64,000 nt of DNA, from assembly GCA_030390025.1 (NCBI GenBank), contig CM059453.1, forward strand, positions 7,874,001 through 7,938,000. Direction: 5' to 3'. Position numbers and translations under genes: made by a program. Under the pieces are notes generated by a model. That model did not search any database and had not been told where the DNA came from. It saw only the letters and a list, made by a program, of their open reading frames with translations. This DNA comes from Squalus acanthias. Taxonomy: Eukaryota. Shown here in pieces: positions 649 through 62,300 of this stretch (positions are counted from its first letter, which is position 1; every line of letters begins with the position of its first letter).

Positions 649-733
649 GAACATTTCCCTGGGAAATTGTCATCCCAATATTAGCAGCCGCCGGAGTTAT
701 CCTGCTGATCCTGATCGTGGTGATGGTGCACAG
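649..733 (+). CDS. Siglec-like gene A, transmembrane exon (GTFPWEIVIPILAAAGVILLILIVVMVHR)
   Basis: ttttag| acceptor and |gtatgt donor; phase 1 to 2; uncharged hydrophobic helix; paralogous exon at 49949-50033. Confidence 0.88.
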
Positions 734-5992: not shown

Positions 5993-6041
5993 GAGGAAGA
6001 CAAGAGGTACCACTGGTGTCCTCTTAACCAACAACGATTCG
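5993..6041 (+). CDS. Gene A cytoplasmic exon 1 (RRKTRGTTGVLLTNNDS)
   Basis: T-rich tract and ctcag| acceptor, |gtgagt donor; phase 2 to 0 matches the TM exon; basic stop-transfer residues. Confidence 0.8.
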
Positions 6042-7433: not shown

Positions 7434-7601
7434 AGACAAGACATGTATGGAGACACTGATGTGAAAGGGGCTACATCAAACCGGTCAGCACAAAGTGAAG
7501 AGGCCCTGTATGCAGCTGTCAATTTTTCAAAATTTCACAAGCAAGAGCAATATCTCCAGAACGAGGAGACAAGTGAATACGCCGCAATTAAATTTAAATG
7601 A
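7434..7601 (+). CDS. Gene A terminal exon with ITIM-like ALYAAV and distal SEYAAI (RQDMYGD...EETSEYAAIKFK*)
   Basis: ctgttatag| acceptor, phase 0, 55 codons + TGA; two Tyr motifs spaced as in CD33/Siglec-type tails. Confidence 0.88.
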   Translation, partial: RQDMYGDTDVKGATSNRSAQSEEALYAAVNFSKFHKQEQYLQNEETSEYAAIKFK

Positions 7602-15242: not shown

Positions 15243-16000
15243 GGCCAGAAATTCGGCTGTTGTCGGGTGAGTACGCGCTGTGTACTCACCCGGAAGGCAA
15301 CCTGAAGTGCTGGTTTCCTGCGTGCACTGCGCATGTGCAGGAAACCGGAACTTCCGTTCCCCTGAAGGGAGGGGTTCAGAAGTCGAACGCGTGCGCGGGA
15401 GAGGCTGCGCGCACGCAGCAAACTTCGTTTTTTTTCCGATTTCTCCGTGAGGGTGTGTATGGAGAAGCTGCAATTTTAAAAAGGAGACGCAAGGCCTGTT
15501 TTTAACATGGTGAGTGGTTAACTAATTACAATTTAAACATTTTTTCAGCAGGTTTATACTTTTAGATACTTAAAAGAACGGTAAAAAAATTTTAAAACCG
15601 TTAAAAAGTATAATTAATTTTTTCAAAAATGTCAATTTTTGTTTAAAGTAGTTAATTTATGTAACTTACAGTTATTTAAAAATTGTGATTTTTTTTAAAG
15701 TTTATTTGAAGTTTAAGTGTGGTTTAGGGGCCGATCTCTATTCATAGATTTGACAGGCCTTCCTGTCAAATCTATGAATGAAAATGCCCTGCTCGGATTG
15801 GCTCTCCATGGCCCACGTGATCCAAGGGGACGCTTCGAACTAACTGCGCAACTGGGATACGCAAGCACTGCGCGCCGGCAGCTGGAGGTGGCCCAGGACG
15901 CAAAGTCCTCGAGGGCCCAAAGCACAACTGCAGACGCGGTACGTAAGTACTCATGTGATGCTTGCAACCGCAGGCATCCAGAAAGCCGAATTTCTGGCCC
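15243..16000 (+). mobile_element. MITE (PIF/Harbinger-like), divergent subfamily
   Basis: TIR ggccagaaattc..gaatttctggcc; empty sites at ~18657 and ~63728. Confidence 0.8.
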
Positions 16001-19064: not shown

Positions 19065-19780
19065 GGGCCGAAAATTGCGTACTCTCGCGTATTCCCACTC
19101 CAATTGCCGGTTTTCTGCATGCCCTGCGCATGCGCTGAAAACCGGCAATTGCTCTTCTGAAAAGGGGGCGGGTCCTGGGTGCATCGCGTGCGCGCTACAG
19201 GCTGCGCACACGCTGTGCACTTCATGCTTTGGACGCGCAGGTAAGTACGGATGATTTTGGAAATGTAAAAAGGAGGAGTAAGACCCGCGTTTAAGAAGGT
19301 AAGTAGTGAATTAAGTATTTTTTTGAAATTTTTTTTACAGGTATATCTTTTTTAGAGATTTTAAAGACAGGTAAGTTTATTTTTATAACTTTTTAATAGA
19401 TTTAAAATTTTTTCAAAAATTAAATTTTTTATTTAAAATGGTTAATTTAATTAACTATACTTACTTTATTAATGTGATGGTTTTTTTTTTAAATTTAATT
19501 GAGGTTTAGCTGTTATTTTGGGGGGGGTCAGATTCATAGATTTCACAAGGTGCTGTGAAACTTATGAATGGAAGATGGTGTGCTGCCATTGGCTCTAACT
19601 AAGTCACGTGATCCCACAGCTCGCACGAATTCACTACGCCGCTGGGATACGCAAGCACTGCACAGCAGCTGTCCAGAACATCAAGTTCGTGCGAGCGGGA
19701 TCTGAAAAAGCACAAGCGAGGTGAGAGATCGCGGGAAAGCCTTACCCCCGCGGGAACAGAGCGAGATCATTTTCTGGGCC
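19065..19780 (+). mobile_element. MITE (PIF/Harbinger-like), ATT TSD
   Basis: Imperfect TIRs; empty site in the other LTR at ~16569. Confidence 0.88.
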
Positions 19781-20444
19781 ATTAAGTATATTACGCTGTA
19801 TCCTTAAAAAATCTTAATCTATTGCTCAAACATACTGGCTGCTGCCTATTGGTGTCTTGTCCAAGAACTCGGTGACCGTTAAAATCTTACAATACAGCAC
19901 ATTTAATAACATTTTAATTCATAGTTATTGAGAAATCCATTGAATGTTTATTATAGATATATTTTGATCAATATTTTAATGTATATTTGAAAAGTTTTTA
20001 TTAGGCATTCACTTGCTTTTTAGTGTATATTTATTTGGCTTTTGCAGGGCTGTGGTGAAACAGCAAGGGAGTGGGACCAATTGGCTAGCTCTTTCAAAGA
20101 GCCGGCACAGGCACGATAGAGTAACTAATTACCTTCTGTGTTGTATTATTCTATGATTCTACTGATAAACATCAGAACAGGAATGTTGGAGAGGCGGGTC
20201 AGTACGGTTTCCTGAAATTCAGTGCAAAAACTACTAATAAACTATTTGCCATCACAGTCTAACAGATTGCAATGTCCCAATTCAATTTAAAAACCACGTT
20301 GATTTCCATAAAGTAACTGTATGTTCCAAGCATCAAACAGAATGATTTGAATGAAATGTCGTATCGAGACCCCTTTGGTAAAACACCAGCCTTTACTATA
20401 ATTCAACCTAATACACCAAGACTGTGTATACCAGTAAGAGCAGA

Positions 20445-23362: not shown

Positions 23363-23405
23363 ATGAAGAGTATTAGATTGATCTCCATACTGATATTTAA
23401 CGAAG
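23363..23405 (+). CDS. Siglec-like gene B, signal-peptide exon (MKSIRLISILIFNE)
   Basis: gtcATG, hydrophobic core, G|gtaaaa phase 1 joining the V exon (..EVVHS). Confidence 0.8.
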
Positions 23406-23756
23406 GTAAAATATTCATTTTAATAATTAATTTCAGAAGCGATTTCCATTCTGTGGGAAATTAACACGTTCATTGTTTGTGGAGATAGTACATGTTTAGT
23501 TGGTAATTTACAAATTCCCAATTTGCCCATTTAATGCATATTTCATTGGAAACTTTATCTTGTATTTTATAAGATTGATTTAATATTCACTCTATGATTT
23601 ATCGACATTCAATTGAATAACTAATGGATTCTGAAGAGTTTTAATGAAACTTTCACCAGTTTTAATGGATGTAATAATGAATATGTTAGTGGATGTTTAA
23701 AGGTTAAATTAATAGTATTTAACCTGACGGTCATGGTATGTTTTAATTGCGATATT

Positions 23757-24498
23757 GGGCCGAAAATTGATCCCGGTGCGCGAGAGTACGCACTGCGTAC
23801 TCTCGCGTATTCTCTCTCCAATTGCCGGTTTTCTGCATGCCCTGCGCATGCGCTGAAAACCGGCAATTGCTCTTCTGAAAAGGGGGCGGGTCCTCGGTGC
23901 ATCGCGTGCGCGCGACAGGCGGCGCGCACGCTGTGCACTTCATGCTTTGGACGCGCAGGTAAGTTCGGAAGATTTTGGAAATGTAAAAAGGAGTAGTAAG
24001 ACCCACTTTTAAGAAGGTAAGTAGTGAATTAAGTATTTTTTTGAATTTTTTTTAACAGGTATATCTTTTTTAGAGACTTTAAAGACAGGTAAGTTTATTT
24101 TTATAACTTATTAAAAGATTTTAAATTTTTTCAAAAATTTAATTTTTTATTTAAAATGGTTAACTTAATTAACTATACTTATTTTATTAATGTGATGGTT
24201 TTTTTTTAATTTAATTGAGGTTTAGCTGTTATTTTGGGGGGGTGTAAGATTCATAGATTTCACAACCGTGCTGTGAAACTTATGAATGGAAGATGGTGTG
24301 CTGCCATTGGCTCTAACTGAGTCACGTGATCCCACAGCTCGCACGAATTCACTGCGCCGCTGGGATACGCAAGCACTGCCCAGCTGATGTCCAGTACATC
24401 AAGTTCGTGCGAGCTGGATCTGAAAAAGCACAAGCGAGGTGAGAAATCGCGGGGAAGCCTTACCCCCGCGGGAACAGAGCGAGATCAATTTCTGGGCC
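23757..24498 (+). mobile_element. MITE in gene B intron 1
   Basis: TIRs, ATT/AAT TSD; empty site at ~40058. Confidence 0.88.
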
Positions 24499-24544
24499 AA
24501 TATTGCGGATTTCAATGGGTGTTTAATTTCTGTTTTTTCACCAG

Positions 24545-24925
24545 TTGTCCATAGTTTACGATGGTATGTGAAGGTGCCGTGGAATGTGTCGGCGGTGAGC
24601 GGGTCATGTGCTGAGATCCCGTGTACATTTGATTATCCCGCCTATGGCCGCAGTCCACGGGGTACGTGGTTAAAGGGGGGGCCTGATCCTGGAACCTCAG
24701 GGTTGTTGATTATCTGTGATTCCCGGAATTCAGACAAAGTGCCCTTGAACTATAGAGGGCGAGCTCAGTTCACTGGCGACTTTGAAAAGAAACAATGTTC
24801 CTAACGGTTAAAGGACATCAGGAAGATCGATGAAGGTGTTTATTATTTCATATTGAAGATCATCACCGCCCAGAATACTACAGGAGAATATTCTACCGAA
24901 ACTAAGGTCACTCTTTCTATTTTAG
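24545..24925 (+). pseudogene. Gene B V-set Ig exon with in-frame TAA (24802-24804) and essential Arg replaced by Ile
   Basis: GSCAEIPCTFDYP...W...GRAQFTGD..KQCS*...DEGVYYFI; 381 nt like the paralog; TTA to TAA and AGA to ATA relative to gene C. Confidence 0.88.
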
Positions 24926-25691: not shown

Positions 25692-26003
25692 ATAAACCAC
25701 GGATATCAGTCTCGGGGGAATTCATTGCAGGAAAGACAGCACACCTGACCTGCTCAGTCACCCACAGTTGCCCGTCCGCCAACCTTGAATTGATGTGGAC
25801 CCACGACAATGTTGTGCCTCCAATTCTGCCAGCGATTAAAGCTTCAAAAGTACATGATAACGCTTTCGAGGGTTCCCAGAAGGTTTCATCCACTTTCAAC
25901 TTCAGCCCATCACTGGACCATCATGGGAAGAAGCTGGGATGTAAACTTATAGTCGGCGGTGTCACAGCTACTGTTGAAGAAACTCTTACACTGGATGTTA
26001 AAT
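25692..26003 (+). CDS. Gene B Ig domain 2 exon (C2-set, CSVTHSCP motif)
   Basis: ttcag|...|gtaagt; DKPRISVSGEFIAGKTAHLTCSVTHSCP...DHHGKKLGC; Siglec domain-2 CxxxxxCP signature. Confidence 0.88.
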
Positions 26004-27331: not shown

Positions 27332-27589
27332 ATGGCCCACAAAAACCAACCATCAATTCCTCTATAGCGGCAGTGGAAGGGAGGTCTTTATTATTATACT
27401 GCACGGCCCGGGGGACCATACCAGGCAACTTAACTTTGGTCCGAAATAGTGAAGAGATCAGCACGTCTTCCACTGGGGAACTGAAGCAGATATTCCACAA
27501 CGTTAGTTCTGGAGATAACGGTGAATATTGGTGCGTGGCTGATAATAACTTGGGCAAAGCGAACAGCTCCACACTGATTTCTGTACAAT
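27332..27589 (+). CDS. Gene B Ig domain 3 exon (C2/I-set)
   Basis: ccag|...|gtaagt; EGRSLLLYC...DNGEYWCVADNNLG. Confidence 0.9.
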
Positions 27590-31650: not shown

Positions 31651-31911
31651 CACATATTGCTCCAGGAAATATATGGATTAATTGACTCCTCATTGGCTCG
31701 ATGCAATTCCATACCTGAGTTATTGCCTTGCTAGAAATTAGGGGAAAGTAAATTCTGATGAAGCTTTAAATGAATTTAATATTGACTGGTTCTAATCAAG
31801 CTCGTTATGTGCAGTGACCTCTCTGCTTAATCTAAACGAATAAATTGGTTCTATTTAGACACTGCAAACTGCTGTATGGAAACTATCTCAAGCTGGCTTC
31901 TCTATTTTCAG

Positions 31912-32199
31912 ATAAACCCACAATAGTATCAGGCCCGACCTGCACCAGCTCTGAGGGTGGGGTTCATTGTACCTGCAGTATCAGAGCCAACCCCCCAGCA
32001 AACATCACCTGGGGCATCAATGGGAGAAACATCACTGCGAACAGTTCAGATATCAATATACTCTCCTCGGGGTTGAAAAGTCACCTGGTGCAGAGCTCCC
32101 TGACACTGACTCAACCAATTGGAACTGAACACCTGATCTCATGTTTTGGAGTAAACGAGCATGGCATTACTGTCGGAAAATATCAGCTCCAAGCTGAAG
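31912..32199 (+). CDS. Gene B membrane-proximal Ig domain 4 exon (MAG-like CxC)
   Basis: ttcag|...|gtatat; PTCTSSEGGVHCTCSIRANPPANITW...SCFGVNEHG. Confidence 0.88.
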
Positions 32200-33176
32200 G
32201 TATATATTGTATTTTACTGTAATTTAATTACTGCGAATGTTTCTGTCCTCACCTGTCAGTGACTAACTCAACGGTGTTAGTGTCAGCATGTTCCAGTTCC
32301 ACTGAGCTGAAATATCATTCTTATCTGCAAAGTAGGACTGAATTCAATTTTAATTTCAGTAGTGTTTGGGACTGGTTCATGACTGAGCGCTACCTCACTG
32401 AATGTTACGATGGGAATAATTCATGTGAAGTTTAGAGTCTGGTATCTGAATTTGATTATTGTCGCCTTGTTTTTGTGAAGATAGGAGGGATAATATAAAA
32501 CACTCGGAGCAGCGTGTCATCTTTCATAAAATAAACCCTTCTAACTTAGTGACACACTCGATGAAATCATGTTTCCTCTCATTGTAACGGTAGTGGGGTA
32601 CAGTCGATCAGTTCAACATTTTTTCACAGATATTTCAGCCTACTGCCGGTTTTGTTGTCCTGAAGATATTCTGAAAGAACTATACAGTGCGATAACACTG
32701 ACAATGGAGCCAGGAGAACTTCGATAACTGAAAGAGCCGGTTATAGACTGAATTAACTTATCGGATAGCAAGCGAACAGATCCGAGTATGTGGCGTGGAT
32801 TGATGCAGTCTCTCAGGGAGACTGCGTTATTTAATGGTTTGAAGAAGCGCAGGGGAGTTATCTCTGGTGCCCTGGCCAATATTTATCCCTAAACCAATAA
32901 CACAGAAACAGATTTATCTGCTGATTTACTGTATGGCTGTTTGTGGGATCTTGCTGTGCGCAATTTTGCGGCCACGTTCCCTACAGTACAACGTTGACTA
33001 CACTTCAAAAGTACTTCATTGGCTGCAAAGCGCTTTGAGACGTCGGCAAAAGCGGTATATAAAAACAAGTTCATTTTGTTCTTAACAGCTTCCCGTACAT
33101 GCTGTTAAATGTTATGTTGAATCTTGGTATAATCTTAGAGCAATAATGAAGAGCACGGTTTTTTTTTATATTTTAG

Positions 33177-33276
33177 GATCATTTTGGAGAATTGTCATGC
33201 CAATCAGAGCCGCCGTCGCAGTTCTCATTCTGATTGGCATCATTGTCTTGGTGAGGATAGAGATTGATTCACACAG
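33177..33276 (+). CDS. Gene B transmembrane exon with intramembrane Arg (GSFWRIVMPIRAAVAVLILIGIIVLVRIEIDSHR)
   Basis: ttttag|...|gtatgg; homologous to the A/C TM exons and their flanks. Confidence 0.82.
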
Positions 33277-33876
33277 GTATGGTTCATATTACTTATACTC
33301 ATGCTTTAATAAGACAGATTTCAAAAGAACGTGACATCAGGATTTCAGCCCATGAGCAAATATTGCATAATATAATTATCCCCAGCTATCATTGACCCTG
33401 AATCTCAGCGAAGAGTTGACAAGGGAAGGCTTGCTGGAGTTCAGTTGCTTGTGAAGGGAAAGTAGGGGAATGTCAGAAGTTCAGCGTCCCATGTCTGATC
33501 TTTCACTTCTTAGTTCAAATATTGTACATCAAGGGCCAGTGCAGAAATTGGGTGCAAAATCTAGCCTGTCACTTGAGCGGAGGCGCCGTATTTCATGCCA
33601 GACAATTTAAGCTGAACACGGTTTGGCAGCTCAAAGCTCCCGTGGCCATATTGGCGGAGGACCTCATGACTCCGGAGGCCATAAAATGCTGCACAGAAAC
33701 ATTGCTGGCCACGAAAGGGCAAATTCCGGTGCATTTTTAAGACATGGCGGAAATTGCTATGGTTATTCTGCACCAGTAGATGCCGCTCGCTTTGCATTTA
33801 TAAAATGTTCAGTGAACACTGAATTTATCAAAGCAGATCAAGATAGATATAACCAGCTTCATCAGATAGAGATAAT

Positions 33877-34589
33877 GGCCCAAAAATTCGTGAGGAAGCC
33901 TTCGTGCGAGGGTAAGGCTTCTGCGCGATCTCTCACTGCGCGTTGGCTTTTTCAGTTCCAGCTCGCACGAACTTGATGTTCTCGACAGCTGCTGTGCTCG
34001 GCTTGCGTATCCCACAAGCGCAGTTAATTCGTGCGAGCTGTGGGATCACGTGACTCAGTTATAGCCAATGGCAGCACACCATCTTCCATTCATAACTTTC
34101 ACATCAGTGCTGTGAAAGCTATGAATAATATAGCCCCCCAAAATAACAGCTAAACCTCAATTAAATTTTAAAGAACATCACATTAATAAAATAAGTATAG
34201 TTAAATAAATTAACCATTTTAAATAAAAAATTAAATTTTTGAACATTTTTTAAATCTTTTAAAAAGTTATAAAAATAAACTTACCTGTCTTTAAAGTCTC
34301 TAAAAAAGATATACCTGTTAAAAAAAATTCAAAATAATACTTAATTCACTACTTACCTTGTTAAAAGTGGGTCTTACTCCTCCTTTTATTATGTGTAAAA
34401 TCTTCCATACTTACCTGCGCGTTGAAACCACTAAGTGCACTGCATGCGCGCAGCCTGTAGCGCGCACGTGGTTCAGCTAGGAACCGCCCCCTTTTCCATT
34501 CACCAAGTGCCGGTTTTCAGCGCATGCGCAGTGCATGCAGAAAACCGGCAATTGGAGACAGAATACGCGAGAGTACACAGTGCGTACTC
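33877..34589 (-). mobile_element. MITE, reverse orientation, one end truncated
   Basis: Reverse complement of the 19065/55604 family. Confidence 0.85.
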
Positions 34590-37394
34590 AACATGAAAAT
34601 CAACTTTAACATAGTGCCTTGAAGTATAAAACGTCCTGAAGCGCTTTCAGAGTTTATAGCAAGAGAAGTACATTCCAAGACAGTGGAGAAAGTTTAAGAG
34701 ATTTAGAGAGAGTAAATTGAAGGCTAGGACCAAAAGATGACGTTCAAGGATGATAGAGACATAGAGAGGGGAAGTGGATATAATGCGGGGTTCCACAGGG
34801 CCTCGGCAACAGTCAGTCCTGGGAACAAATTGCAGGATGCATGGAAAGGAGATATGCACAGGGCGCCACGTCTTTTTTATTGATTCGTGTGATGTGGGCG
34901 TCGCTGACAAGGCCAGCATTTATTGCCATCTCTAATTGCCCTTGAGAAGGTGGTGGTGAGCCTCCTTCTTGAACCGCTGCAGTCCGTGTAGTGAAGTTAC
35001 TCCCCCAGTGCTGTTAGGGAGGGAGTTTCAGGATTTTGACCCAGCGACGATGAAAGATCGGCGATATATTTCCAAGTTAGGGTGGTGTGTGACCTGGAGG
35101 GGAACTTGGAGGTTGTGGTGTTCCATTGCGCCTGCTGCCCTTGTCCTTCTAGGTGGAAGGGGCCTCTGGTGTGGGAGGTGCTGCCAAAGAAGCCTTGGCG
35201 AGTTGCTGCAGTGCATCTTGTAGATGGTACACACTGCAGCCACGGTACGCCGGTGGTGGAGGGAGTGAATGTTTAAGGTGGTGGATGGGGTGACGATCAA
35301 ACATGCATAACACTGAAAGGCGCTGGAAAGTAAATTTGGAAAAAATTGCAGAGTATAAACGGAGAATTGCTATGACATGGAATGCACTGCCTGAAGCTGT
35401 GATAATAGCAAATTCAATCGTAACTTTCTAAAGTGAACTGGAGTTATACTTTAAAAGGAATAATTTGCAGGGTCATGGAGAAAGAACAGGCGCGTGGGAC
35501 TAATTGCATAGCTCTTTCAAATAGCCGGCACAGGCACGATGGGGTGAATAATTACTTTCTGTATTGTATTATTCTATGATTCTACCAATAAACAATAGAA
35601 CAGAAATGTTGGAGAGGCGGGTCAGTAGGGTTTCCTGAAACTCAGTGCAAAAATCAACAGTAACTTATGTGTGCCAGTAAGAGCAGAGTGTCTTAACAAG
35701 AGGAATGTAGCAAGCTTTAAAACTTGTTCCGGATGCGTTTACCTTGGATAGCAGAAGATTCATGGGCCTGGTCTCCAACGTGATTCAAATGGCAGTTGGA
35801 GCGCTTCCTTCTATTGAGAGGATGTGTGGAAATCGACCAGATCACAGCACACGTCACATCTGTTGGACAATGGTGGAAAGTGCATTGCATCAGGAAGAAG
35901 ACATTATCCGGCCACAGTTGCTTCGTTCTGCACAAGCTGTAACAAATTTCGATAGTCCATTTTGGGGAGGGTGAGGTGGACTCGGAGTTTACCTTGGCAT
36001 GCTACAGGATGTCTGCCTCAGTTGGGCTCAAATGTGTCTGATGATATAGTGACAAATAGCCCATGTAATAACGGCGTTCGGCCACTTTGTGGCGCTGTTG
36101 GATTTAGACGCTTTTCTCAATCACACTGAGCACAAGGAACATACATGACTTCAGGCTGCAGAAGGAATCAGAGAAATTGCAACAAATAGCAATTCCTAAC
36201 GCAATTGCAGATATTCCAGCACTCTAAATATCCAAGGAGCAATTCAGCAATTAGTATGTCCCCATCCCAGCTAACCTGGGCCAGGCACTTAAAGATCTGT
36301 CAGTGCTCGCGCTCCGGTCTAAAACCCCACAGACACTCTTTGTTAGACTTGCAAGTTAAAAATGGGCAATTGTTTGAGGTACTGGCGGGAATGTATTTTA
36401 ATAATAGACAAGCATTTCACAACAGGGGCAAAATTGCAACATGGGAGTGGAGTGGAAAAGTACAGGGGCATAATTTTTAATTCATGCTTGGGATGTGGGC
36501 GTCGCTGGCATGGCCTCGTTTATTGCTCCTTCCTAGTTGCCCTTGAAAAGGTGGTGGTGGGCCTTCTTCTTGAAATACTGCAGTATGTGTGGCGAAGCTG
36601 CTCCCACATTGCTGTTAGGGAGGGAGTTCCAGTATTTTGACCCAGCGATGTTGAAGAGATGGTCGTATATTTCCAAGTCAGGTTGAGTTGTGAGTTGGAG
36701 GGGAACTTGGAGGTGATGGAGTTCCCATGCACCTATTGTCCTGATATGGAGGCAGTGACATCTTCCTTGTCTCTTACTTTCTGATTGTAGGGATAAATGC
36801 ACAATCCCATTCTCCAAGCAGTGGGCCGAACATGCAGCGGTGGTTGGTCAGAGAATCGCGCTCAGTGTTGCGGCCTATCTTCGATCCGTGCTTCCTGTAA
36901 TTCATTGTCAACTCTGAGCTCTCACTTTGCAGTACAGTTTAAACACTGAGCTGCAAACACAACAGGTCCTTTCAAGATGCAGCATAGAGTATAAGACGGA
37001 TGGTGCCTGAGCACAGATAAACTCATTCTGGTTCAATGTCCAGAATGATTCACACCCAAGAACGTCATAGATAGCAGCGGGCTGACGGCTGTAGTAATCA
37101 CATACAGGGGCTCTAAATAGAACCCAGCACTTCACACCTCCGCTTTGGTGCTATACTGGCCCATGGTGTAAATAAACCCACCTCGGTGCAGCCACAGTGA
37201 ATGAGGCACAGAGCAAGCACCATAGGAACATTATGTGTTAAACCCAAAGTCTGCCCCGAAGTTGACCACACCTCACATCACCTGACACTCTCAAAGCAAA
37301 CTGGGCCTTGTGTGGAGCATATTTGAGCAGAGTGCATTGCACAAACCTTCATTCTGGGATTGACCAGACATACGGCATCACTTGTTGTTTATAC

Positions 37395-40103: not shown

Positions 40104-40484
40104 TTGTCCATAGTTCACGATGGTCTGTGAAGGTGCCGTGGAAGGTGTCGGCGGTGAGCGGATCATGTGCTGAGATCCCGTGTACATTTGATTATCCCGC
40201 CTCTGGCCGCAATCCAGGGTGTATGTGGTTAAAGGGGGGTCCTAAACCTGGTACCTCAGGGGTCTCGATTGTCTATGATTCCAGTGATGCAAACAATAAA
40301 GACTATAACGATAGAGGACGAATTGAATTCACCGGCGATTTTCTAAAGAAACAATGTTCCTTACAGATTAATGTCACCAGGAAGAGCGATGCAGGTGACT
40401 ATTACTTCAGAGTGAAGATCACCACCGCCTGGAATATAACAGATCAATACGTTTCCAAATCTCCTGTCTCTCTTTCTATTTTAG
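40104..40484 (+). CDS. Gene C V-set Ig exon, intact, with essential Arg (DAGDYYFRV)
   Basis: Open 381-nt exon, ccag|...|gtaagt; Siglec-type Cys pattern (GSCAEIPC, CSL) and F-strand Arg at 40409-40411. Confidence 0.92.
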
Positions 40485-41288
40485 GTAAGTGTTTTTATTT
40501 GCTCCTGTTGTATTTTATATTCCATCTCCTCAGTGCCATTGAACTTACGACTAACATACCAATATCCCGAGTAATTGTTGGCCCATGTCACATGATACAG
40601 CGGCAGGACTGCTCCGCTGACTCTCACCCAGGTGTGTGTTATGTTTTGACTTGAACTGTAATAGGGCGCAGGCCTTCTTAATAACTTACAGAAGCTCCCT
40701 GGCAAGGCAAGAAGAATACTTTATCATACGAATATATTAAACTGCAGGTGGAGGAAATATACAGGTAGATGTGAAATTCTATGCAAAGGAAGCAGGTGGA
40801 CCATTTCTGTAAATAGACTGCTTGATGTGGTGCCGAAGCGTTACGCCAACAGTGTCCCAGATTCTATCCCATGTCTGTGCTTGGGATAGAATCAAGGACA
40901 CGCTTAGTCTAATGACTCAGTGTCAGATCAAACAATTAATTTACCCAAAGCGGCATGGACGGGTTGAATTGTTGCTGATATTTGAAAGTTTCATTTTGCA
41001 TTTTGAGCAATGCAGTGAGTGCGTGGTCAATAAATCACCTGACAATAATGTGAATTATTCACGTGATAAAGCGACTGACTATTAATTATACGAGTACATA
41101 AATGCTCCGATTGATTCTTTAACTCTAAGAACTTTTAGCATATTTCGATGCACCATAGCGCGGGAAAAAAACAGTAGATGAATTCTTAAGGGGATATTTT
41201 CTCAGACTTTGGGCTGAATCACCTTGCACACCATTGGCCATTTTAAAATTGAAATCTACTGTAACGCGAATGTCCTTCTCTCCTTATT

Positions 41289-41349
41289 ATAAACCACGGA
41301 TATCAGTCTCTGGGGAATTGATTGCTAGAAAACCAGTACACCTGACCTG
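41289..41349 (+). pseudogene. Truncated 5' remnant of gene C domain-2 exon
   Basis: KPRISVSGELIARKPVHLT then an abrupt switch to CR1; AG acceptor absent. Confidence 0.85.
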
Positions 41350-41350
41350 T

Positions 41351-41805
41351 AGGCGGTTCACTAGATTTATTTCAGGGATGAGAGGGCTGTCCTATGATGA
41401 TAGGTTCTGAAGAATGGGCCTATAATCTCTGCGTTTAGAAGAATGCGAGGTGATCTCATTGAAACATGCAAAATCTGAAGGGGATTGACAGGGTAGATGC
41501 TGAGAGGTTGTTTCCCCTGGCTGGATTGCCTAGAATTAGGGGGCATAGTCTCAGGATAAGGGGTAGGCCATATAAGTTGAAGATGAGCAGGAATTCTTCA
41601 CTCAGAGGGTTGTGAATCTTTGGAATTCTCTGCTCTAGACTGCTGTGAATGCTGAGTTTCAAGGCTGAGGTGAATCAAGGGATATGGAGATCGGGTGGGA
41701 AAGTGGAGTTGAGGTCGATGATCAGCCATGATCTTACTGAATGGCGGAGCAGGCTCGAGGGGCCATATGGCCTACCCCTGCTCTTACTTTTTATATTCTT
41801 ATGTT
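41351..41805 (+). mobile_element. CR1 3' part at the inversion breakpoint
   Basis: Starts mid-RT (cggttcactaga) and ends in a tail. Confidence 0.85.
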
Positions 41806-43107
41806 ATTAAATGTAATTATCAGTGCGGATGAGGAATATAAAATAATAGATGTGACAACTAAAGAAGAATATTGAAGTAAGATATAGTGGCTATCTTGCA
41901 ATCTATTAATTCAAAATCCATTTCCTGATTTTTATGCCCTCGATCTTACGCTTATGTCAAACATACGCATTCCTTCTCCTCTTCTCTTCAACGATTTGAA
42001 GATGGATATGTTTTCCCGCATAATGTTCTATTCCACCGGTACATCAACCTCGTGGCAATTCCTACCAGATTAAGTACGGTGGACTTTCCCATGTCTTACA
42101 CAGGGGTGCTGAGGCTAATTATAGAATCCAGACTAACGCCCCAGCTAAATTGTGCCACAGGTTAGCAAGGCCATGAAAAAAAACAAGCACTGGAGTTTAT
42201 TTCGAGAGGGATAGAATTGAAAGGTATGGAGGTTATGCTAAACCTGTATCGAACATTGGTTAGGCCACACTTGGAGTACTGCATACAGTTCTGGTCACCA
42301 TATTATAAAAAGGATATCGAGGCACTGGCGAGGGTGCAGAGATTTACAAGGATGATACCAGAAATGCGAGGGTATACATATCAGGTAAGGATGAACAGGC
42401 TGGGTCTCTTTTCTCTTGAAAAAAGAATGCTGAAGGGTGACCTAATAGTGGGCTTTAAAATTGTGGCAGGCTTTGATAGAGTCGATGCAGAGAGAATGTT
42501 CCCACTTGTGGGGAAGAGCATAAATGGTGGTTATCAATATAAGATAGTCACCAAGAATTCCAATTGGGAATTCAGAAGAAATTTTTTACCCAGAGTGAGG
42601 TGAGAATGTGGAACTCGCTACCACAGGGAGTGGTTGAAGCGAATAGTAAAGATGCATTTAAGGGGTGGCTGGACAAGCATATGAGGGAGAAGGGAATAGA
42701 GGGTTACGCTGATAGAATTTGATTAGGAAAGATAGGAGGAGGCTCGAGTGGAACATAAACGCCGGCATGGACTGGTTGGGCCCAATGATTTGTTTCTGTG
42801 CCGTATGTCCTATATATGTATGTGAGTTAGCTCAGACCATGAATGGACTCTCCCTGGCCTGTATGTTCCAGTTACTCTGTGGCTGAAACGACATCAAACA
42901 TTGGGAGCCTTTGCAATAAAATTTCAGGTAAACCCTGGAGCGACCAATATTACTCATGGGTCTGGGGTAAATGTCAAATAATGTGACTTACATGAAGCTT
43001 CGATTACTTGTTTATCCAGGCGCGCTATCACTATATTCAATATAAAGACATCTATTGAACCGGTTTATCAACAAGTTGGTTGAATGAAGCTTAGAGTAGG
43101 CACTTAC

Positions 43108-43419
43108 ATTTAATATCCGGTGTAAGAGTTGCTTGAACGGTAGCTGTGACACCGTCGGCTATAGGTTTACATCCCAGTTTCTTCCCATGATGGTCCGGTG
43201 ATGGGCTGAAGTTAAAAGTGGATGAAACCTTCTGGGAACCCTCGACCTTGTCGCCATTTCCTTTTGAAGTTTTACTCTCTGGCAGAAAAGGAGGGACAAC
43301 ATAGTCATGAGTCCACATCAGTTCAAGGTTGGTGGACGGGCAACTGTGGGTGACTGAGCAGGTCAGGTGTACTGGTTTTCTAGCAATCAATTCCCCAGAG
43401 ACTGATATCCGTGGTTTAT
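43108..43419 (-). pseudogene. Gene C domain-2 exon, full length but inverted, acceptor lost
   Basis: 312 nt like 25692-26003; ORF 43091..43474(-) KPRISVSGE...CSVTHSCP...DHHGKKLGC. Confidence 0.9.
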
Positions 43420-49948: not shown

Positions 49949-50033
49949 CAACATTTCCCTGGGAAATTGTCATCCCAGTACTAGCAGCCGCCGGAGTTAT
50001 ACTGCTGATCCTGATCCTGGTGATGGTGCACAG
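49949..50033 (+). CDS. Gene C transmembrane exon (ATFPWEIVIPVLAAAGVILLILILVMVHR)
   Basis: Canonical splice sites; 5 of 85 nt differ from gene A. Confidence 0.88.
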
Positions 50034-55140: not shown

Positions 55141-55603
55141 CTCTTTCCTCAGGCCCTTGCCTGATAACAACCTCAGCATGGGCAGCAAGTGTATCTCAGT
55201 GAAGTCCAACAGTCCTGTTTGAGTGAAGCTAGTTTTTTAACTGCAATTTCCCATAAGAGAATCAGAAAAAACAATAACAAGCTAAATTTGAAGAAAAATT
55301 GATTCGTTTTAGTCAGAGGAATAGAAAACAGAATCCAGGTTTTCAAACTGACTCAAAAAGGAAATTCCTTTCTCTCGCAGTTGATAACTCCAATGGACTG
55401 GACTTAAGCTATGTAATATGAGGAATGAATGTGTTAACGCACTTTCTCAAAGTCCTGTCTGTAATTATAAAATGTTGATCGCATTTTGCATTAAACCCTT
55501 CCGTCTGCTCTTTAGACAGTTTGTCAAGACAATGTGTGCAAATCGTTTCTGTTGAGCAAGGCATGAAACACTTGTCTGCGACGTAATAGGGTGTTGAAAC
55601 AAT

Positions 55604-56342
55604 GGCCCAAAAATTCGTCCCGCGACGCGAGAGTACGCACTGCATACTCTCGCGTATTCTGTCACCAATTGCCGGTTTTCTGCATGCACTGCGCATGCGC
55701 TGAAAACCGGCTCTTGGTTTTTGGAAAAGGGGGCGGTTCCTCGGTGCACCGCGTGCGCGCTACAGGCTGCGCGCACGCTGTGCACTTAGTGCTTTGGACG
55801 CGCAGGTAAGGACGGAAGATTTTAGAAATGAAAAAAGGAGGAGTAAGAGCCACTTTTAACAAGGTAAGTAGTGAATTAAGTATTATTTTGATTTTTTTTT
55901 AACAGGTATATCTTTTTTAGAGACTTTAAAGACAGGTAAATTTATTTTTATAACTTTTTAAAAGATTTTAAATTTTTTCAAAAATTTAATTTTTTATTTA
56001 AAATGGTTAATTTATTTAACTATACTTATTTTATTAATGTGATGGTTTTTTTAAATTAATTGAGGTTTAGCTGTTATTTTGGGGGGGTGTAAGATTCATA
56101 GCTTTCACAGCACTATGTGAAACTTATGAATGGAAGATGGTGTGCTGCCATTGGCTCTAACTGAGTCACGTGATCCCACAGCTCGCACGAATTCACAGCG
56201 CCGGTGGGATACGCAAGCACTGCCCAGCTGATGTCTAGAACATCAAGTTCGTGCGAGCTGGATCTGAAAAAGCCAACGCGGAGTGAGAGAACGCGGGGAA
56301 GCCTTACCCCCGCGTCAACACTCAGTCTTTAATTTCTGGGCC
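55604..56342 (+). mobile_element. MITE, AAT TSD
   Basis: aat-GGCCC...GGGCC-aat; empty site at ~3852. Confidence 0.9.
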
Positions 56343-56680
56343 AATGTGTGAAACACATGCCTGTCGTTCAAACACAGTCTTAACAAACAGCAACTCTCCC
56401 CCGTCTGATACTTACTCGGTGTGCACGCACTTTACAAAACTCCTCCATTTCCTGTTTAAACAGTATTAACTTAATGTGCGGAATTCCTGTCTACAATTCT
56501 AAAGGAACACTGTGCAGGCTGATCATTCCTCCCAGTGCAGACTGCACCATATCATTCACCAGCTTCATTAGATAGGGAGAACACCTCATTTATACATTTG
56601 GAAGTGTAAGGATAGAAAAGTAACGGGAATCAAATCCTGTCTATGCTAATCAGGAAATGTCAGACAGTCAAGTCACTGAT

Positions 56681-57829: not shown

Positions 57830-57878
57830 GAGGAAGACAAGTGGTACCACTGGTGTCCCCTTAACCAACAATGATTCG
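57830..57878 (+). CDS. Gene C cytoplasmic exon 1 (RRKTSGTTGVPLTNNDS)
   Basis: ctcag|...|gtgagt; phase 2 to 0. Confidence 0.8.
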
Positions 57879-59278: not shown

Positions 59279-59398
59279 AGACAAGACATGTATGGAGACA
59301 CTGATGTGAAAGGGACTCCATCAAACCGGTCAGCTCAAAGTGAAGAGGTCCTGTATGCCGCTGTCAGTTTTTCAAAAGTTCACAAGATAGAGCAATAG
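59279..59398 (+). CDS. Gene C terminal exon with ITIM VLYAAV; premature TAG before SEYAAI
   Basis: TAT to TAG at 59396-59398; ancestral frame continues to TGA at 59444-59446. Confidence 0.85.
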   Translation, partial: RQDMYGDTDVKGTPSNRSAQSEEVLYAAVSFSKVHKIEQ

Positions 59399-62300
59399 CT
59401 CCAGAACGAGGAGACAAGTGAATACGCCGCAATTAAATTTAAATGAAATCCACTATTCTGACAGATGGAATCTATCAATATCAACACGACTGTTGTTATG
59501 ACTTAGAATAGGAATTTCACATTCCAGGAATTACGTTGTGAATGGACATCTATCAGAGATTAATTGCTATGATTTCAATTCTCTTTGTGAGAAGATTTGA
59601 TTTCCAATCCCAAACGAGTTTCTGTTGCAAGCCTTTGTCTGAAATTGAGCAATAAGCAATATTTAACTCAATGTAATTTTAAACTATTTTATCTGCTTTA
59701 ATAAAACAACCTCTCAGCTTCTATCCTGTCAATCCCCTTCGGAATATTTTGTTTCAATGAGTTCACCTCTCATTCTTCTAAACTCCAGAGTGTCTAGTCC
59801 CATTCTACACAATCTCTCATCATAGGACAGCCCTCTCATCCCAGGAATCAATCTGGTAAACCTTCGTTGCACTGACTCCAAGGCAAGTATATCCTTCCTT
59901 AGATAATGAGACCAAAACTGTACACAGTACTCCAGGTGTGGTCTCAGCAAGGCCCTGTACAATTGTAGCAAGACTTCCTTACTCTTACACACCAACCCCT
60001 TGCAATAAAGGCCAACATGCCATTTGCCTTCCTTATTGCTTGCTGTACCTGCATGCTATCTTTCTGTGTTTCTTGCACGAGGACACCCAATCTCTCTGAA
60101 CACCAGTATTTAAATGTTCTGCACCATTTAAAAAATATTCTGTTTTTCTATTCTTCCTACCAAAGTGAATAACCTCACATGTCACTGCATTATACTCCAT
60201 CTGCCACCTTACTGCCCACTCACTTAGACTATCTATATCCCTTTGCCGACTCTTTGATTTCTCCTCACAGCTAAATGCTCCACCTAGCTTTGTATCGTCA
60301 GCAAACTTGGATACATTACACTCATGCCCTTCATGTAGGTCGTATATATATATTGTAAATAGTAGAGGCCCCAACACTGATCCGGATTGAGCAATCTGTA
60401 CGAGGCTCCTTTGATTACGTCACTGTACTCTGCAATGGAAGACAGCAGTTGACCCTTAACCTCAGCTGTATGCCAGCAATTGCACAAGCCTCTTATCTCG
60501 TGCAGGCAGATCTCATCTGAACTGATTCTGTTTCTCAATCTAATGATTAAGGTCGACGTGGCTTACTTGAGATTCCGATTGAGTCCAGAATTGGTTCAAA
60601 CTGATCAAATTAAAGGGACTTGTTCATGTAGATAAAATATGGTAATATTGTTTCATGCAGCATTGACACTCGAATGTAAAAGCTGAAGCCACACTTCCCA
60701 GATCCAGCATTGAAATGAGAAAACAATCATAAAAGGGTCACTGTGGCAACTGGGATATGAATGAGTTAATTTCACCAAATGTCATATCGCTGAAGTGTGA
60801 ATATATACAGTTGAGGTCACTTCGAAAAATGGAAGTTTACCGTGTGAAACTGTCAAACTATTTTGACCCTTTGACATTTCAGCCTGCTGAAGGTGATAAA
60901 CTCACATGTCTGCAGAGAGCGGCTACAGAACAAACCACAGCATCTCGTTCACAGCACATTGGCAGCCAAGTACCTAAACATGTGAGAGATATGAGGTTAA
61001 AGTGTGCGCACGAGGCTATTTTAGATATTCGAATCATAAATGTTAGTTCCTGTCCTGTAACTGTGTAGCTGATGAGGGGGGAGGAGGGGTAATTCTCTGT
61101 TCGGGAGTCTTTGGCATTATGTTGATATCATCATAGCAAACGTAATAACGATATTTAAGAAGGGGGATAGAACATTTCAAGGGAATTATAGACCAGTCAG
61201 CTTAACATCGGTGGGAGAAAAATAATGGAATCCCTACTTAAGGAGAAAATGGAAGAACATCTGGAAACCAAAAATATAATAATGAATGGTCAGCATGGAT
61301 TTCAACAGGGAAAGTCTTGCTTGACCAACTTTATTGAATTTTTTGAAGAGGTAACTGCGAGAGTAGACAATTGCAATGCAGTAGATGTAATTTATCTGGA
61401 TTTTCAAAAGGCCTTCGATAAGGTACCCCATAATAGACAGATGAACAAGGTCAGCGAATCTGGAGTCAGGGGACAAGTAGCAGATGGGATTGCTATCTGG
61501 ATTCAGAACAAACAGCAGAGAATAGGAGTAAAGGGCAGCTATTCACAGTGGCAGCAGGTGGGTAGTGGTGTGCCACAAGGATCAGTGCTGCGAACACTGC
61601 TGATCAAAATTTCCATTAACGATTTAGACTTTGGAATCAAAAACATTTTCTAAATTTGCAGATGACACCAAATTGGGGGGGATAGTCAATACTGAGGAGG
61701 ACTGCAACAAATTACAGGAGGACATTAATAAACTTACAGAATGGCCAAATAATTGGCAAATGAAGTTCAAAACAGATCAACGTGAGGAATTACATTTTGT
61801 TAGGAAGAATAGGGAGGTCACTTATTACTTGGATGGTGTGAGTCTAGGAGGGGTAGAGGAACAAAGGGATCTCGGAGTACAAATACACAAATCACTAAAA
61901 GTTGTGCCACAGGTTAGCAAGGCCATAAAAAGCAAAATCAAGCACAACGCTTTATGGATTGTTTCTAGAGGGATAGAATTGAAAAGTAGGGAAGTTATGC
62001 TAAACCTGTAGGTGCAGAGAAGATTTACAAGGATGATACCAGAAATGCAAGGGTATACCTATCAGGAAAGGATGAACAGGCTGGGTCTCTTTTCTCTTGA
62101 GAAAAGAAGGCTGAGGGTGACCTAATAGAGGACTTTAAAATGATGAAAGGTTTTGAGGAAGTGGATACAGAGAGAATGTTTCCACTTGTGGGAAAGAGCA
62201 TAACTAGAGGCCATCAATATAAGATAGTCACCAAGAAATCCAATAGGGAATTCAGAAGAAACGTCTTTAACTAAAGCGTGGTGAGAATGTGGAACTCGCT

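Follow-up and report, generated by a model that had tools for sequence, protein, structure and literature searches.

An arginine-type transmembrane exon beside ITIM-tailed paralogs in a Siglec-like gene cluster of Squalus acanthias: a candidate activating lineage

What kind of receptor would a Siglec-like gene specify when its transmembrane (TM) exon carries an arginine and no ITIM exon follows it? This question is raised by gene B, one of three gene blocks (A, B and C) in a stretch of 64,000 nucleotides of Squalus acanthias DNA (G000:C30:7874001-7938000), hereafter called the window. In a genome search, the V exons of the window matched a large Siglec-like cluster on C30; their best shark protein matches, at 62-63% identity, are from Heptranchias perlo and Chiloscyllium. 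The cluster genes compared here come from 855 kb of its 1,295-kb span, with C30 7.24-7.68 Mb and 6.0-6.77 Mb left out. Their TM exons are of two types, that of genes A and C (A type) and that of gene B (B type or Arg type). The features discussed are collected in Table 1.

The arginine-type TM exon and its retention

As originally noted, an AGA codon (33206-33208) in the gene B TM exon stands opposite leucine codons of the two other genes, TTA in gene A (681) and CTA in gene C (49981), and the exon is five codons longer, with 100 nt (33177-33276, flanked by AG and GTATGG) against 85 nt in both A and C. In detail, gene B lacks one codon towards the 5' end and has six additional ones towards the 3' end, and the Arg replaces a Leu within the hydrophobic core of the A type. 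A second Arg (33254-33256) is common only to gene B and one near-identical copy, that is, 2 of the 11 copies scored. Searches of PDB and Pfam with the B-type TM exon gave no match. The remaining letters were also read correctly: homology to gene A, proposed to end at about 33490, stops close by at 33432 (70.6%), reading through the donor yields the predicted tail with its TGA at 33332-33334, and the interval from 33277 to gene C contains neither a first cytoplasmic exon nor an ITIM exon.

Table 1. Positions of the features of genes A, B and C in the window.
Feature	Position	Strand	Remarks
Gene A TM exon	649..733	+	85 nt; hydrophobic core without charged residue
Gene A first cytoplasmic exon	5993..6041	+	RKT...
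Gene A last exon	7434..7601	+	ITIM-type (LYAAV) and distal (SEYAAI) tyrosine motifs
Gene B signal-peptide exon	23363..23405	+	ATG at 23363; phase-1 donor
Gene B Siglec-type V-set exon	24545..24925	+	TAA at 24802-24804; family call via gene C V exon
Gene B Ig exon 2	25692..26003	+	open
Gene B Ig exon 3	27332..27589	+	open
Gene B Ig exon 4, membrane-proximal	31912..32199	+	open
Gene B Arg-type TM exon	33177..33276	+	100 nt
Intramembrane Arg codon AGA	33206..33208	+	position 6 of best 21-residue window; 23 residues before exon end
Second Arg AGG, inner TM end	33254..33256	+	Thr in 9 of the 11 scored copies
Read-through tail past donor	33277..33334	+	19 codons to TGA; predicted
3' flank common to B-type copies	33335..33877	+	90-95% identical, 99% to closest; possible 3' UTR
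715-bp repeat at deletion site	33878..34592	.	ITIM remnant and ATTAAA (~+646 in paralogs) removed
Gene C V-set exon	40104..40484	+	essential Arg (YYFRV), aligned to sialoadhesin Arg
Gene C TM exon, A type	49949..50033	+	
Gene C last exon	59279..59446	+	ITIM motif, then stop before distal motif
~700-bp repeat copies	15245-15871, 19076-19784, 23756-24501, 33878-34592, 55603-56345		

The Arg is not private to this copy. Genome-wide DNA and protein searches found AGA in all 12 B-type TM exons, and the residue also occurs in proteins of other sharks. Within the genome, its retention is weak evidence because the B-type copies are ~95% alike, and at that divergence it would be kept by chance with a probability of ~0.6 under neutrality. 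Among the 11 in-frame B-type TM exons, nine variants change the amino acid and one is silent; there is no purifying-selection signal in these exons inside this genome. The density of variants is 10 per 100 nt in the TM exon versus ~20 in the flanks (P~0.013).

The evidential weight is carried by retention across species. In the Mustelus asterias (P0005, Carcharhiniformes) and Cetorhinus maximus (P0013, Lamniformes) proteins, the Arg occupies the same alignment column and the 3' extension of six residues recurs; TM identity is only 39% and 48%, respectively, the Arg being kept while its neighbours change. In Scyliorhinus torazame (P0010), the Arg is likewise 23 residues from the exon end, MAFFT placing it two columns off, and this protein probably shares the Arg type; a Scyliorhinus-type TM query gave no match in the S. 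acanthias genome. The Ig domains of this genome cluster with those of Heptranchias, a squalomorph, with modest support (90/82), and the Arg type may be older than the separation of the two shark clades. The TM tree neither supports nor rejects that the Arg-type TM arose only once (p-AU 0.48).

It should be noted that the Arg alone is not diagnostic, because two broken genes of a second subfamily (G000:C30:6841783-6841878 and 6867319-6867414) have a TM Arg together with a tyrosine-motif last exon. Charged TM segments were also seen elsewhere. Multi-Ig proteins P0048, P0052, P0122, P0131 and P0138, one of which is named sialoadhesin-like and comes from the teleost Channa argus, have an IIR motif at the TM start and resemble FcR-gamma-type anchors. 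The P0009, P0065 set contains a Stegostoma family member with a TM Lys and a short tail, and a Siglec-like protein from Chiloscyllium that has a TM Arg and whose short tail is of a different type.

The 3' end and the state of the copies

Two exons make up the A-type tail: the first cytoplasmic exon, 49 nt long, and the last exon, in which an ITIM-type and a distal tyrosine motif are found. The first of these was found 11 times, each time after an A-type TM exon and never after a B-type one. The second has left 13 remnants (63% ungapped and 70-73% local identity to the A form), nine of which are located downstream of a B-type TM exon; stops interrupt the ITIM frame in all 13, and 9 of the 12 B-type genes keep a remnant. 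These stop-bearing remnants 3' of B-type TM exons show that the B end goes back to an ancestor with an ITIM tail. The earlier statement that gene B stops at its TM exon is therefore right in that no ITIM exon is left, and incomplete in that this is partly due to a later deletion, most paralogs retaining a dead ITIM exon. Homology of gene B to the other B-type copies runs to 33877, where a 715-bp repeat replaces ~4.4 kb; the deletion was found in the window copy and in its twin at C30:7095106, both devoid of an ITIM remnant.

Repeats of this kind (~700 bp, AT-rich at the core and carrying short inverted repeats) are present in at least five copies in the window, one immediately 5' of the gene B V exon and one at the 3' deletion. 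In the A-type genes, the first cytoplasmic exon (window 57830-57878 and 5993-6041) apparently uses an earlier GT donor, and a stop-containing sequence takes the place of the proximal tyrosine motif (TYAAV-like) of the Mustelus and Carcharodon proteins.

Two endings can be considered for the open B copies. The frame would either run on past the donor for 19 codons, as read-through, or be spliced to the remnant, whose shifted frame lacks tyrosine. The read-through tail shows five silent and seven replacement variants (P 0.057, borderline constraint), and a poly(A) signal at ~+630-650 in 9 of 11 copies fits a read-through last exon, though not beyond chance. As regards splicing, the acceptor AG of the remnant is kept in 13/13 and the shifted frame is open for 28 codons in 12/13; silent and replacement changes in that frame occur at similar rates (0.38 vs 0.30), with no sign of coding constraint.

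Gene B itself is broken. The TAA of its V exon (24802-24804) corresponds to TTA in the 99.0%-identical V exon of an ITIM-tailed paralog, and in the assembly sequence the joined frame ends after residue 100, with no ORF covering all the exons. The window copy is thus probably a pseudogene or a null allele, and some of the frame breaks in the gene family may be assembly errors. At most, it would give a V-less product through exon skipping or serve as a conversion donor. Its 3' half is duplicated at C30:7086039-7111379 (99% over 2.5 kb) beside a different V exon that is broken differently, and this copy appears to be a recent recombinant. We compared RNA runs with the TM region of an open paralog and with the V/Ig2 region of gene B: in three runs labelled as the same species, the TM and V exons were without cover and a single low-depth contig fell on Ig exon 2. 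For window positions 31800-33600, a look-up gave no RNA data set.

The family is not uniformly broken. Two of the 12 B genes are open through every exon with AG/GT sites (479 aa), and two further ones are open (382 aa) if a second Ig exon devoid of an acceptor is skipped, leaving eight broken copies. Open paralogs are located at G000:C30:7772972-7786678 (plus strand) and 6922425-6910729 (minus strand). Decay is equal in the A type: of its 11 genes, two have open 527-aa frames, each with a single AT acceptor, skipping of the acceptor-less second Ig exon would open three more, and early stops interrupt the others. In the region examined, we found no fully canonical full-length A-type gene; those with open frames depart from this by an AT acceptor, by the need to skip an exon or by a truncated tail. 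The original reading of gene B as an activating Siglec-like receptor can thus be maintained, conditionally, for the Arg-type lineage and its open paralogs; it fails for the window copy, given the stop in its V exon.

That copies broken at this frequency (8/12) form an amplified pseudogene class, the Arg and tail loss being mere decay, is improbable: such a class would accommodate the lack of a silent excess in the TM exon and an Arg retention attainable by chance within the genome, but it is at odds with two fully open genes, with matching TM segments in proteins annotated for two or three further shark species, with a TM exon at half the variant density of its flanks and with the equal decay of the A-type copies.

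Siglec identity and pairing with ITIM-tailed paralogs

The family assignment of gene B relies on gene C, to whose V exon its own is 63% identical. When compared with PDB, the gene C V exon matched Siglecs in all but one of the top 19 hits (sialoadhesin 1e-10), and in Pfam V-set and Ig_CD22 were above cut-off. Siglecs are marked by a cysteine pattern of two Cys in strand B and one in strand E, with an extra Cys in domain 2. Aligned to sialoadhesin, the pattern is present here as CAEIPC and QCS in the V domain and CSVTHSC in exon 2.

The sialic acid site is less well preserved. The essential Arg of the F strand is found in 6 of 21 V exons (4 A, 2 B), and the binding position is occupied by Ile in the window gene B and by Lys in both fully open B genes; since the essential Arg is replaced, we use the label Siglec-like, and sialic acid binding is doubtful for these copies. 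The Arg-type proteins of Mustelus and Cetorhinus keep the essential V-domain Arg. The six genes with the essential Arg, namely one in the window (40104-40484 and 41261-43419) and five paralogs on C30, share an additional Cys that precedes the Trp of the C strand. In each of them, the second Ig exon has TT in place of the acceptor; this exon lies inverted in genes A and C. Since skipping of the second Ig exon preserves the frame, this suggests a three-Ig subtype with both tail types.

We then compared the two types at both ends of the gene, using 21 genes (11 A and 10 B, the two B copies without a V exon being left out) for the V and TM trees. Between types, V exons average 88.0% identity, no less than the similarity within them (88.7 and 87.1%) would lead one to expect, A-B values ranging from 79 to 99%; the closest A-B pair is 99.0% identical on opposite tail types. 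Moreover, the type label changes six times on the V tree, and 111 of 500 label shuffles were as low. In contrast, the TM exon with its flanks averages 71.4% between A and B, and the types separate on one branch with support of 100/100. Across species, in a comparison of 20 rows, the membrane-proximal Ig domains of A and B cluster by lineage, and monophyly of the B type is rejected (p-AU 5.8e-9).

Shared V exons joined to cleanly split TM exons, with an ITIM in the A form and, in the B form, a charged TM residue and a short ITIM-free tail predicted from the DNA, correspond to a paired-receptor pattern like that of SIGLEC11/16. A matching pattern is described for SIGLEC11/16 under gene conversion (PMC5701461) and for SIGLEC5/14 (PMC4042635). 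The shark ectodomains were presumably kept matched by gene conversion or by recombination such as unequal crossing-over.

Membrane position of the Arg and the candidate adaptor

On the Kyte-Doolittle scale, the Arg comes sixth in the best hydropathy windows of 21 and 23 residues in three copies of this genome as well as in the Mustelus and Cetorhinus proteins. Its predicted location within the membrane is consistent with these windows and less so with the best 19-residue one, which leaves it just outside in two of the three copies. In most copies, 17 hydrophobic residues come after the Arg, and another Arg and a Trp are located just upstream.

The search for partners gave an FcR-gamma (FCER1G)-like TM exon (L105:1504-1596, minus strand; G000:C1222) with its Cys and Asp kept; only this exon was checked, and its best match in PDB is FcR-gamma (24/30 identical, E 9.7e-12). 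A separate CD3-zeta TM exon is located on C5, whereas an exon-split genome search for DAP12 and DAP10 with PF07213 or PF02189 returned only noise.

Given these observations, we favour, with somewhat better than balanced confidence, the view that gene B is a stop-broken member of an Arg-TM, ITIM-less lineage that is likely the activating half of a pair, probably acting through the FcR-gamma dimer. An activating role of the lineage is in itself fairly probable, and about two thirds of that confidence goes to FcR-gamma as the adaptor. The 3' end of an ITIM-tailed ancestor became the Arg type, with the TM Arg, a longer exon ending in SH[R/H] and the loss of the first cytoplasmic exon, and the ancestral ITIM exon stayed behind with stops. 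The open paralogs would give receptors of ~479 aa in which the TM Arg engages the Asp pair of the FcR-gamma dimer; upon ligand binding, the Arg type would signal through ITAM and Syk, and the A-type twins would recruit SHP phosphatases. Matched ligand-binding domains may thereby counter pathogens that exploit the inhibitory form.

The choice of adaptor depends on the depth of the Arg. In Siglec-14, the charged TM residue is an Arg. According to a study of TM assembly (Feng et al. 2006, PMC1440944), the Arg of FcaRI is at TM position 3, the Asp of FcR-gamma at 6 and that of DAP12 at 9; type I partners of DAP12 have a Lys, their basic residue being at TM 7-12, whereas FcR-gamma partners have an Arg in the TM's N-terminal portion, with a strong preference of Arg for FcR-gamma versus Lys for DAP12. 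A depth of ~6 falls between FcaRI and the DAP12 partners. An equally activating paired receptor that recruits DAP12 (or DAP10 or CD3-zeta), as mammalian activating Siglecs do, is unlikely, yet it is the alternative that survives best. Position 6 adjoins the range of the DAP12 partners, Siglec-14, -15 and -16 are described as binding DAP12 via a TM Lys or Arg (PMC9404585, PMC6829431), and for CD3-zeta the TM exon is there. On the other hand, the Arg lies at the very depth of the FcR-gamma Asp, an N-terminal Arg marks FcR-gamma partners, a Lys-to-Arg change is reported to reduce KIR-DAP12 assembly to 15% (PMC1440944), and neither Pfam family of DAP12/DAP10 had a match in the exon-split search, in which such a gene could be missed. 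FcR-gamma is therefore favoured but not established, because the Arg is deeper than that of FcaRI and because DAP12-binding Siglecs can use Lys or Arg.

More doubtful is a tail-less decoy or adhesion form, in which the Arg would snorkel to the outer headgroups, engage no adaptor and compete with the ITIM twin. The 17 hydrophobic residues past the Arg would nearly suffice as a TM segment, the 19-residue window omits the Arg in 2/3 copies, and the upstream Arg and Trp are nearby. However, the Arg supplants a Leu of the A-type core and keeps the same place across shark orders while its neighbours change; in addition, a short tail without basic residues right after the TM fits what is described for adaptor-dependent receptors (PMC13358205).

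Coming back to the activating reading, its closest counterparts are known receptors. LILRA, OSCAR, GPVI and NKp46 are FcR-gamma-coupled Arg receptors, as is FcaRI. The shark lineage resembles FcaRI, as described in PMC1440944, in its type I topology, single Arg predicted for the outer TM, ~15-17 hydrophobic residues thereafter and short ITIM-free tail, and differs from this group by a Siglec-type ectodomain with the V-set first, as opposed to the C2-only LRC type, and by the depth of the Arg (~6 vs 3). As in SIGLEC11/16 and SIGLEC5/14 (PMC5701461, PMC4042635), Siglec-type V-set and C2-type domains are combined, an ITIM member accompanies a short-tailed member with a charged TM, the ligand-binding exons are homogenised and, in the primate pairs described there, the activating member commonly has null alleles. 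Unlike these single pairs, the shark subfamily counts no fewer than 12 TM exons of the Arg type and 11 of the ITIM type, its Arg-type tail visibly derives from an ITIM-type tail with the dead ITIM exon downstream, most of its V domains lack the essential Arg, and the mammalian adaptor is DAP12. The nearest relatives, XP_078093181.1 (Mustelus), XP_078392811.1 (Cetorhinus) and XP_072326203.1 (Scyliorhinus), have the Arg-type TM, the SH[R/H] end and the same Ig family; they are automatic models named MAG-like or Siglec-13-like, and their tails differ from that of gene B.

On a wider view, which we put forward only tentatively, an activating Siglec-like lineage wired to FcR-gamma and not to DAP12 would have existed since before the galeomorph/squalomorph split, its TM-tail module moving between ectodomain subfamilies and its ligand exons being exchanged with ITIM twins, independently of primates. 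No paper on activating or paired Siglecs of sharks emerged from our literature searches, whose coverage did not extend to subscription journals or supplements, so that absence from print is not established.

The significance of these findings is tempered by the fact that the design principle is well known, that the flagged copy is broken and that function is a prediction from sequence. Primates are the group from which paired Siglecs with an activating member are described, and these use DAP12. A shark family that arrived at this design from an ITIM-tailed ancestor would, if true, be a second and older instance of this arms race. As it possibly uses a different adaptor, it offers a testable case of adaptor choice, FcR-gamma versus DAP12, with the Arg at depth 6. 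Moreover, the FcR-gamma exon bears on a 2014 survey that reported FcR-gamma as not found in sharks (PMC4016189), and if the proposed wiring is true, it would mean FcR-gamma signalling in cartilaginous fish.
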